Below are positions 62,976-64,000 of a DNA stretch of 64,000 bases, piece by piece. The notes under the pieces were generated by a model. That model was not told the origin of the DNA and did no database searches. It saw nothing but the letters and a program-made list of their open reading frames with translations. Within the stretch, counting starts at the first letter, position 1; each line of letters opens with the position of its first letter. The DNA is from Parcubacteria group bacterium Greene0714_7 (GTDB lineage Bacteria; Patescibacteriota; Minisyncoccia; Phycocordibacterales; Phycocordibacteraceae): positions 252 to 64,251 of the forward strand of contig VMHB01000001.1 in NCBI GenBank assembly GCA_007378985.1, in the 5' to 3' direction. The translations under genes and the position numbers were made by a program.

Positions 62976-64000
62976 TTACTCTCCAAGCTTTAAATTCCCA
63001 AGCGCCGACAAATTGCTTGCGGTACGTGTTCCCGATAGGTGACGGAGATAGCCAGCTACACCAATCATGATGGCGTTATCACCAGTGAGTGTTGCATCAG
63101 GAAATAAAAGTTGAATGTTTGAAAACTCTTCATCTACTAATGCGGTAAGTGCGCGTTTAATTTCAGTATTTGCAGAAACACCGCCACCGACCGCTAGGAT
63201 TTTTGGCTCAGTTGCTTCAAGTGCTCGTTTGGTTTTTATTATCACGACATCGCGTGCTGCGTCTTCAAATGCTTCTGCTATTTGTTCTTTGACTTTCTCG
63301 TCAATTTTATCCATGTCACGAAGTTTATAGAGCACTGCGGTTTTTAAACCTGAGAAAGAAAAGTCGCATGTATCGTCCTTCGCCATTGGCCTTGGAAATG
63401 AGATTTCATTTTTTTCACCCCGCGCCCGTGACCTTGAAGCAACTTCAGCAATCTGAGGCCCTCCTGGATAGGGAAGGTCAAGGAGTCGTGCAACTTTATC
63501 GAATGCTTCACCGATGGCGTCGTCTCTCGTTGCTCCAATGTGTTCGTAGACAAAAGGCTCTTTCATTACTACAAACTCTGTGTGCCCACCTGAAATGAGG
63601 AATGCAAGGATAGGGAAGTGCATGGCGTTTAGGGTATAGCGTTTAGGGTTGAGAGGAACTTCGGATTGTTCTGTTGATTGCTGACTATCTACTTCCTGCT
63701 TCAGCAAAGCAGAGAAAATATGCCCCTCCATATGGTCGATCCCAATGACGGGGATATTCCAAGCTCGTCCCAAGCTTTCAGCAAAATTAATACCTGTCCA
63801 GAGTGCTGGCTCAAGGCCAGGGCCTTTTGTTACCGCAATAAATTCAATGTCAGGGTGCTCGGTAGTGTTAAGAAATTCTTCAATATCATTTTTGAATGCT
63901 TCGTTACGAATATTTTTTAAGACATCTTTGTGCACGGCGTCAGTTTTCTCTACTGCTTTGAGCATGCCAGCTTCTCGGAGTGCCTCTTTTGCAAGTGGTG
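62976..64000 (-). CDS. tsaD: tRNA N6-adenosine threonylcarbamoyltransferase TsaD. The N-terminus lies beyond the window end.
   Basis: ..AVTKGPGLEPAL, GIDHMEGH and SGGHTE motifs. The ORF stays open upstream of the annotated M through position 64000. Confidence 0.85.
   Translation of the reverse strand, partial: PLAKEALREAGMLKAVEKTDAVHKDVLKNIRNEAFKNDIEEFLNTTEHPDIEFIAVTKGPGLEPALWTGINFAESLGRAWNIPVIGIDHMEGHIFSALLKQEVDSQQSTEQSEVPLNPKRYTLNAMHFPILAFLISGGHTEFVVMKEPFVYEHIGATRDDAIGEAFDKVARLLDLPYPGGPQIAEVASRSRARGEKNEISFPRPMAKDDTCDFSFSGLKTAVLYKLRDMDKIDEKVKEQIAEAFEDAARDVVIIKTKRALEATEPKILAVGGGVSANTEIKRALTALVDEEFSNIQLLFPDATLTGDNAIMIGVAGYLRHLSGTRTASNLSALGNLKLGE
63624..63655. repeat. Family 1 repeat copy R8 (GCGTTTAGGGTATAGCGTTTAGGGTTGAGAGG), embedded in frame in tsaD
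   Basis: Encodes PLNPKRYTLNA on the tsaD strand, between the conserved HMEGH and FP.LAFLISGGHT blocks. Confidence 0.7.

Follow-up and report, generated by a model that had tools for sequence, protein, structure and literature searches.

The closest known kind of repeat to the one described here is the TAACTGA heptamer of Beggiatoaceae, cyanobacteria and Bacteroidetes, the next closest being heptameric simple sequence repeats (SSRs). The TAACTGA units form direct repeats which place stops in all three frames, overlap the upstream stop codon and are mostly intergenic, and copies in reverse orientation are translated inside open reading frames (ORFs) as a peptide with a period of seven amino acids, the proteins concerned being mostly hypothetical ones or carrying the copy at a terminus (MacGregor 2015, PMC4679880). 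Heptameric SSRs, also termed short tandemly repeated repetitive (STRR) sequences, were described for Nostoc/Calothrix and Xanthomonas with units such as GGGAATC and GGGGAYT; they are over-represented between genes, preferentially less than 50 bp from stop codons, under-represented in coding regions, variable in unit number, in part inverted, and were read as G-quadruplex formers (Rehm et al. 2015, PMC4692102). Rickettsia palindromic elements (RPEs) are longer, ~150 bp, and comprise ten families, each having its own conserved ORF (PMC10969869). Here, we analysed a stretch of 64,000 nucleotides from Parcubacteria group bacterium Greene0714_7 (contig VMHB01000001.1), referred to as the window, in which a tandem array of stop-codon-containing heptamers is read in frame within tsaD. 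Our literature search did not return any description of heptamer arrays for Patescibacteria. Our data suggest, with a probability of roughly 70%, that a hypervariable loop of TsaD, specific to the clade, is encoded in part by an in-frame, antisense array of the genome's own heptamer family, which has been inherited as an old allele without recent transposition.

The tsaD gene, encoding the tRNA-modifying t6A37 threonylcarbamoyltransferase, runs into the end of the window. Its assignment is supported by the NCBIfam model TIGR00329 (243.8 bits at a cut-off of 207.8), by solved TsaD structures matching the protein with E = 1e-67, and by conservation of the metal-binding HMEGH motif as well as of SGGHT and GGGVSAN; the equivalog model TIGR03723 scores 267.6 and stays under its cut-off of 296.1, because the copy in the window lacks 63 N-terminal residues. 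The identical full-length protein is P0001 of Parcubacteria group bacterium Greene0714_7 with 403 amino acids. A sequence-only reading of the window had placed a 32-mer, GCGTTTAGGGTATAGCGTTTAGGGTTGAGAGG, inside tsaD at 63624-63655. We found it inside the gene as a single occurrence, one nucleotide further to the right (63625-63656, plus strand, antisense to tsaD), and its translation in the minus-strand ORF is PLNPKRYTLNA, located between HMEGH and FPILAFLISGGHT, i.e. between the HMEGH and SGGHT blocks as that reading had stated. The 32-mer is part of a single 35-nt array arm of five heptamers, the sole in-gene copy in the window of a family built from tandem TAGNNNN units (TAGGGTW, TAGCGTT, TAGCCAY and others), each containing a stop codon.

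Several lines of evidence show the tsaD segment to be a true member of this family. The pattern TAGGGTWTAGSGTTTAG has 19 matches with up to three mismatches, compared to 0.29 expected. The array downstream of a lepA-like gene (56249-56283) resembles the tsaD copy most closely, the 27-mers at 56253-56279 and 63627-63653 being identical at 25 of 27 positions with an exact 20-mer in common. The three consecutive units TAGGGTA TAGCGTT TAGGGTT are exact entries of the 19-word vocabulary of intergenic units, and both outer units of the tsaD array are one mismatch away from it. When we permuted synonymous codons throughout the ~57 kb of coding sequence in the window (n = 200), keeping peptides and codon usage, the exact three-unit match was reached in 0/200 shuffles and the lowest five-unit distance of a shuffle was in most cases around 7 and a single time 3, compared to 2 in the real sequence, which rules out chance similarity of the tsaD stretch to the repeat. 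The 7-mers of the tsaD array are found exactly in the genome's own intergenic arrays to 69%, and in other genomes to at most 21%. The claim of the sequence-only reading that a copy of the dispersed repeat family of this genome lies in frame within tsaD is thereby borne out. The only other period-7 stretch in coding sequence of the window, at 1195-1222 in the ORF 1114-1695 (units CTTGGTT CTTGGAA TTTGAAA TTTGGAA), is unrelated to the TAGGGTW family.

The array being produced by a repeat-induced chimera during assembly can practically be dismissed. The source being a metagenome-assembled genome (MAG) is all that speaks for such an artefact; we found the identical tsaD DNA in three more independent assemblies from different runs (L039, L040 and L041), which argues that the array is not an artefact, and we found the same array in the orthologs L001/L002 and L003/L004, with the reading frame intact.

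The remaining arrays of the window fall between genes according to a crude ORF map. Like the TAACTGA repeats, they consist of tandem 7-nt units which close three frames in forward orientation, the period of seven putting one TAG into each frame, and which abut or overlap the upstream stop codon: array TAGs double as the stop codons of the lepA-like gene, of valS and of a gene ending at 58616. Copies in reverse orientation are translated in ORFs in both systems, here in tsaD of the window as well as in L016, L018 and L038. The two systems differ in that the units here are TAGNNNN with four positions varying among genomes in place of one fixed heptamer, the arrays are usually inverted hairpin pairs just after stop codons while TAACTGA repeats lie just upstream of start codons, and the in-ORF copies are situated in internal loops of a conserved enzyme. 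With the heptameric SSRs they have in common that intergenic 7-nt tandem repeats lie near stop codons, vary in unit number and are in part inverted, and the TTTAGGG/TATAGGG repeats of the window also contain G3 tracts. We rejected G-quadruplex formation as the common principle, as the units TAGCTTW and GAATTAW of relatives are not G-rich and have no GGG tracts. The specific units TAACTGA or GGGAATC are not those of the window, which are TAGGGTW, TAGCGTT and TAGCCAY.

Repetitive extragenic palindromic (REP) elements and bacterial interspersed mosaic elements (BIMEs) are short imperfect palindromes at the 3' ends of genes, associated with RAYT transposases and essentially extragenic. The arrays described here resemble them in being extragenic imperfect palindromes clustered at gene 3' ends and differ by the internal 7-nt periodicity and the conserved stop triplet of their arms. 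Most intergenic arrays are inverted pairs folding significantly better than shuffled sequences (z values in Table 1), suggesting that such a pair acts as a terminator-like or mRNA-end structure. A scan of the whole window with Rfam gathering thresholds returned three tRNAs only and no RNA family for the heptamer arrays.

The architecture of the spacer downstream of valS, in which the valS stop codon is one TAG of the array and is followed by an inverted pair, recurs in eight other genomes, the valS stop being an array TAG also in L001, L003, L007 and L016, and the four variable positions of the units differ among genomes, close relatives included. In the seven valS spacers listed in Table 1 the TAG period is kept and, judged by eye, apparently also the pairing of the arms. 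The valS spacer thus described looks like a conserved gene-end signal combining a three-frame stop with a hairpin, whose sequence probably turns over rapidly and apparently in a concerted manner. We conclude that the TAGNNNN arrays are a clade-wide family with genome-specific unit sequences and no palindromic element of fixed sequence. A further motif of 33 nt, TAGGCGACGCTTCGTCGGATCCGAAGGGATCAT, directly adjoins heptamer arrays at 43681-43713 and 44829-44861, where it forms a 97% complementary inverted pair around ~1.1 kb with a 186-aa ORF; a related copy is located at 30314-30347 of the window and another one in the valS spacer of L010 (13424-13440).

Across the tsaD array, five frames out of six are interrupted by TAG or TAA, which leaves open a single frame, that of tsaD (EVPLNPKRYTLNAMH). 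Read in this frame, (NNNNCTA)3 yields the codons xxx, xCT, Axx, xxC, TAy, xxx, CTA and thereby x-[SPTA]-[K/N/T/...]-x-Y-x-L; the codons of the window are CCT AAA CGC TAT ACC CTA. The repeat period and the open frame therefore dictate the peptide P-K-R-Y-T-L, so that reading-frame arithmetic, a TAG every 7 nt read antisense, accounts for the sequence of this protein segment. We modelled TsaD with AlphaFold2 from 99 sequences (mean predicted local distance difference test score, pLDDT, 94.2; predicted template modelling score, pTM, 0.92). In the model, a helix (residues 152-161) and a short strand (162-164) are followed by a coil of low confidence at residues 165-182 (pLDDT 53-82; 10-residue blocks at 82 and 53), by a strand formed by residues 183-186 (RYTL; block 181-190 at pLDDT 91) and by the conserved strand 193-198. 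E. coli and Salmonella TsaD have no counterpart of residues 165-186, in line with the sequence-only reading, nor of residues 77-111. The expectation of a surface loop holds for most of residues 165-186, which are modelled as flexible coil, and fails for RYTL, a confident β-strand. According to the model the repeat-derived peptide makes up the last part of a flexible surface loop together with a short strand specific to the clade, so that the repeat DNA is predicted to be expressed as a disordered-loop end plus a short β-strand.

Alternatively, the peptide could be ancestral and the likeness of its DNA to the repeat a coincidence. An aromatic-x-aliphatic motif, [YF]-x-[LIV], is present at this position in 99/99 orthologs, PKRY[TA]L[NS] occurs at 59-67% identity (P0011, P0018, P0027), and RYTL is a confidently modelled strand. 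Against this, none of the 200 synonymous shuffles, in which the peptide is fixed, reaches the observed match, and in two other lineages this loop is built from the unit type of the respective genome, which a peptide alone would not produce. The orthologs sharing the peptide (L001, L003 and L007) likewise have heptamer arrays in their genomes, contrary to the outcome which the sequence-only reading had named as refuting it. We therefore consider an ancestral peptide with coincidental DNA similarity to be highly unlikely.

The history of the array was assessed using 99 aligned TsaD sequences with 52-100% identity. The segment from HMEGH to SGGHT comprises 37-38 residues in 61 of the 99 orthologs and 43-45, 48-53, 56 or 62 in the others. 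The codons CCT AAA CGC TAT ACx CTA AAC are common to the window, L001 and L003. The suggestion of a recent, lineage-specific insertion of ~10 residues does not survive, as relatives with 91% and 75% TsaD identity (L001 and L003) share the array almost codon by codon, which rules out an insertion private to the window genome. Some close relatives (87-89% identity) indeed have no such array; they do not show an empty site, however, holding a heptamer-built allele shorter by 14 amino acids in the variable patch VR2. This short allele consists of units in sense orientation, AAGCTTT CGGATTC CAGCTTT CAGCTTT CAGGGAT, having CAG or AAG where TAG stands in the TAGNNNN units. The long VR2 allele of the window is composed of decayed sense-type heptamers (AAGTAGA TAGTCAG CAATCAA CAGAACA), an 18-nt spacer and then the antisense array. 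We rejected presence/absence with an empty site, as the short-loop relatives hold the other heptamer-built allele and the boundaries at K163 and A188 mark a replacement with no clean indel.

A second variable patch, VR1 (residues ~73-111; window ~63851-64000, tsaD residues ~64-113), occurs as two types, A and B, and all four combinations with VR2 are realised: A with long in the window, A with short in L008, B with long in L001 and B with short in L005 and L010. In a neighbor-joining tree calculated outside the loop, L001 groups with short-loop sequences, and the DNA identity to L001 varies in a mosaic fashion, with values between 56% and 100% for bins of 150 nt and a rise within tsaD from 56% to 93-100% over some hundred bases. 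The same 150-nt profile led us to reject a recombination breakpoint exactly at the loop, the low upstream identity representing the VR1 patch and not the whole 5' half. The four combinations and the mosaic identity indicate that homologous recombination among related populations shuffles tsaD alleles. Because relatives share its codons, four allele combinations exist and the identity is mosaic, the array is best described as an old allele in a recombining gene pool; judged from these comparisons of DNA, both the age of the array and the allelic mosaic are shown. We observed no variation in unit number within clusters of 90% identity, in which protein lengths are constant, and the in-gene arrays are thus not visibly unstable.

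The earlier interpretation had been an RPE-type palindromic element, and transposition of an RPE- or miniature inverted-repeat transposable element (MITE)-type mobile palindrome into tsaD, surviving by landing in frame, would explain why copies are dispersed and why many intergenic ones are folding inverted pairs. The outcome is the same as known for RPEs, i.e. dispersed repeat DNA translated in frame in a conserved gene or enzyme as an extra peptide at a site tolerated by the fold (PMC10969869). The long allele with its sense array, spacer and antisense array is laid out like an intergenic pair, and in L003 the arms pair weakly (-25 kcal/mol, z = -1.8, 13/200 shuffles being as good). L003 is the only case of such pairing, and we consider it improbable that the long allele is a whole inverted-pair module. 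The tsaD copy of the window forms no hairpin: with 100 nt of context, folding equals that of shuffles on either strand, and neither the copy nor the whole loop folds (z = 0.07 and 0.77). What we found are tandem stop-codon heptamers, in contrast to the ~150-bp RPEs that bring along a conserved ORF; the repeat stretch in tsaD is 35 nt and the whole VR2 78 nt, compared to roughly 100-150 bp for RPEs, and the host is a Patescibacterium. A spreading element would moreover retain a consensus shared across genomes, whereas the units here differ at orthologous sites even in close relatives, and the copy is old and shared, with neither target duplication nor empty site. Transposition of such an element into tsaD is therefore unlikely, and an inherited array of the genome's own heptamers remains the preferred reading.

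Parallel cases in other Paceibacteria suggest that arrays reached TsaD loops repeatedly. L016, a Staskawiczbacteria MAG with a TsaD of 44% identity, contains three in-frame arrays in tsaD. One is located in the same loop as the window copy (FLEAKSYKLKAKE, TAGCTTW x5), one in a C-terminal loop (DYKLKAISYKLN, again TAGCTTW units), and TAGCTTW units also make up the array pair after valS of L016, whereas the array in VR1 is built from another unit having no counterpart in the intergenic arrays of L016. In L018, the C-terminal loop of TsaD is encoded by (GAATTAW)n, the same unit as in the intergenic arrays of L018, and two more places in tsaD hold arrays. In L038, the loop that holds the array in the window is encoded by about ten CAGAGTC units, resulting in an LWTLDS periodicity, and in L003 the first half of the long loop contains a perfect (GTGGACA)3, a decayed version of which is found at that place in the window. 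Arrays in two other TsaD loops were detected in L016, L018, L019 and L023. The fraction of in-gene 7-mers found exactly in the non-coding arrays of the own genome is 0.68 for L018 (0 for others) and 0.50-0.71 for L016. As units of the own genome occupy the same loop in distant lineages, an ancestral peptide is no explanation for them, and this shows that a DNA-level process brings array sequence into tsaD loops.

In a period-7 census covering 365 kb from 20 sources we found 45 arrays, compared to 0-4 for periods of 5, 8, 10 and 11. Among the coding hits, 16 of 26 fall into tsaD, a gene making up ~6-7% of the sequence; when each shared allele is counted once, ~12 hits in tsaD compare with 8 in other genes, and A-richness makes two of those in tsaD doubtful. 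We tentatively propose, at clearly less than even odds, that the insertions VR1-VR3 of Paceibacteria TsaD are built and repeatedly rewritten from the stop-codon heptamer arrays of the own genome, tsaD being a preferred host. Outside tsaD, an ORF of 720 aa in L021, probably valS, contains an in-frame (AAAGTCA)5 close to its C-terminus (5403-5449), and a heptamer array lies in frame near the N-terminus of lepA in L007 (19828-19861); such terminal positions have also been reported for the TAACTGA repeats.

The over-representation of tsaD among array-holding genes would also fit the tsaD array being kept for a function of the nucleic acid, be it as a binding site for a factor that would recognise the intergenic arrays, as an antisense three-frame stop or terminator, or as a slippage-prone on/off switch. 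Some in-gene arrays are perfect repeats (L003, L038, L021), and six of seven array codons are identical to those of L003 at a gene-wide rate of 0.46 (46%), a binomial estimate giving ~0.04. The tsaD copy has no hairpin partner, however, its imperfect units disfavour slippage, length polymorphism is absent from the 90%-identity clusters, relatives do without the array and the codon conservation is marginal. We regard a nucleic-acid function as quite improbable.

Our data support a model according to which arrays would grow and shrink by slippage and would be copied among sites by short-patch ectopic recombination or template switching. In tsaD, only frame-preserving changes in the stop-free orientation and in tolerant loops would survive. 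The old long allele coexists in the wider population with the shorter allele of other heptamers, both being shuffled by homologous recombination. We infer the copying mechanism as well as a neutral or structural role of the array peptide. Several observations weigh against this model. No copying or insertion event was caught, and the tsaD array shows neither target-site duplications nor a clean empty site in relatives, the latter because the seemingly empty relatives hold another allele. The length clusters of 37/38, 43-45 and 48-53 residues fit steps of +7/+14 amino acids only loosely. For GTGGACA of L003, CAGAGTC of L038 and the VR1 arrays of L016 and L018, no matching intergenic unit is present in the 20 kb examined. 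The codon conservation relative to L003 being only marginal, we rejected DNA-level purifying selection on the array. Finally, some orthologs encode the [YF]-x-[LIV] motif without heptamer DNA (for example L014, TAC ACA ATC), and part of the array peptide could thus predate the array.

Table 1. Heptamer arrays, tsaD features and VR2 alleles in the window and in related genomes
Feature	Source	Coordinates	Strand	Remarks
tsaD	window	62976..64000	-	5' end cut by window end; TIGR00329 and solved TsaD structures
In-gene heptamer array, five 7-nt units	window	63623..63657	+ (TAG-carrying strand, antisense to tsaD)	TGGCGTT TAGGGTA TAGCGTT TAGGGTT GAGAGGA; includes the 32-mer
Codons R183-Y184-T185-L186 of TsaD	window	63630..63641	-	array part translated into predicted β-strand
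VR2 variable patch, long allele, K163-A188	window	63624..63701	-	78 nt
Intergenic array TAGGGTT TAGGGTA TAGCGTT TAGTGTT TAGGGAA	window	56249..56283	+	first TAG (56249-56251) is the stop of the upstream lepA-like gene (54437-56251)
Inverted array pair downstream of valS	window	60737..60802	.	TAG of unit 2 serves as valS stop (60795-60793); hairpin z = -2.6
Inverted pair, TAGCCAA TAGCCAC TAGGGTA TAGGGTC TAGGCTC and complementary arm	window	57143..57211	.	strong hairpin, -35.6 kcal/mol, z = -5.2
Array TAGCGGG TAGCCAC TAGGGTT TAGCGTT TAGAGGA	window	56983..57017	-	
Inverted pair between gene ending at 41935 and groEL-like gene starting at 42011	window	41944..41997	.	hairpin z = -3.7
Array CAGGGGT TAGGGGA TAGTGGT TAGCGTT TAGGCGA	window	43653..43687	+	starts 2 nt past the groEL-like stop codon
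valS spacer	window	60690-60830		
valS spacer	L001	13360-13495		
valS spacer	L003	13443-13590		
valS spacer	L005	9664-9805		
valS spacer	L007	13480-13625		
valS spacer	L008	3350-3505		
valS spacer	L016	13600-13715		
In-frame tsaD arrays	L016	10226-10256, 10501-10536, 11009-11045		
In-frame tsaD arrays	L018	10212-10244, 10693-10727, 10974-11013		
In-frame tsaD array	L038	10308-10383		
In-frame tsaD array	L003	10489-10529		
VR2 long allele	L001			TsaD 91%; ..CCT AAA CGC TAT ACC CTA AAC..
VR2 long allele	L003			TsaD 75%; ..CCT AAA CGC TAT ACA CTA AAC..
VR2 intermediate allele (44 residues)	L007			TsaD 64-67%; CCT AAA CGC TAC GCC TTA AAC
VR2 short allele (14 aa shorter)	L005, L010, L011			TsaD 87-89%; KKLSDSSFQLSGMQ
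VR2 short allele (14 aa shorter)	L008			TsaD 79-84%; KKLSGSSFQLSGIQ

The window contains further repeats. A near-perfect palindrome of ~55 nt is present in two copies 3.8 kb apart, at 26505-26562 and 30374-30425 (AAACCCCCTGTATAGTATAAAATAGCG/CGCTATTTTAT..CAGGGGGTTTG), and represents a second repeat type unrelated to the heptamers. The tRNA-Ser(GGA) gene at 46725-46810 is followed by two direct 25-nt copies resembling the tRNA 3' end (46962-46986 and 47143-47167, spaced by ~175 nt), which may be attachment-site remnants of integrated elements, to judge from their resemblance to these. Repeats of 24 nt, GCTCGTCCATATCAAGGAGGAGGC, are located at 22034-22126, two of them head to tail; if coding, they would give an ARPYQGGG-like repeated peptide.

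As a summary, we describe non-coding repeat DNA being expressed within an essential, universally conserved enzyme of a bacterium with a reduced genome. Stop-codon heptamer arrays, known so far from Beggiatoaceae, cyanobacteria, Bacteroidetes and Xanthomonas, are widespread in Patescibacteria as well, where their units turn over between close relatives and where the arrays are able to enter internal loops of conserved proteins, beyond the protein termini. For annotation this calls for caution, as loop insertions in proteins of the candidate phyla radiation (CPR) can be repeat-derived and allelic. The parallel cases make the copying of arrays and the preference for tsaD testable questions. If the TsaD insertions of Paceibacteria are built and rewritten from such arrays, non-coding terminator-like repeats would time and again give rise to new protein segments, among them a folded β-strand whose Y-x-L motif would be dictated by the period of the TAG triplet.

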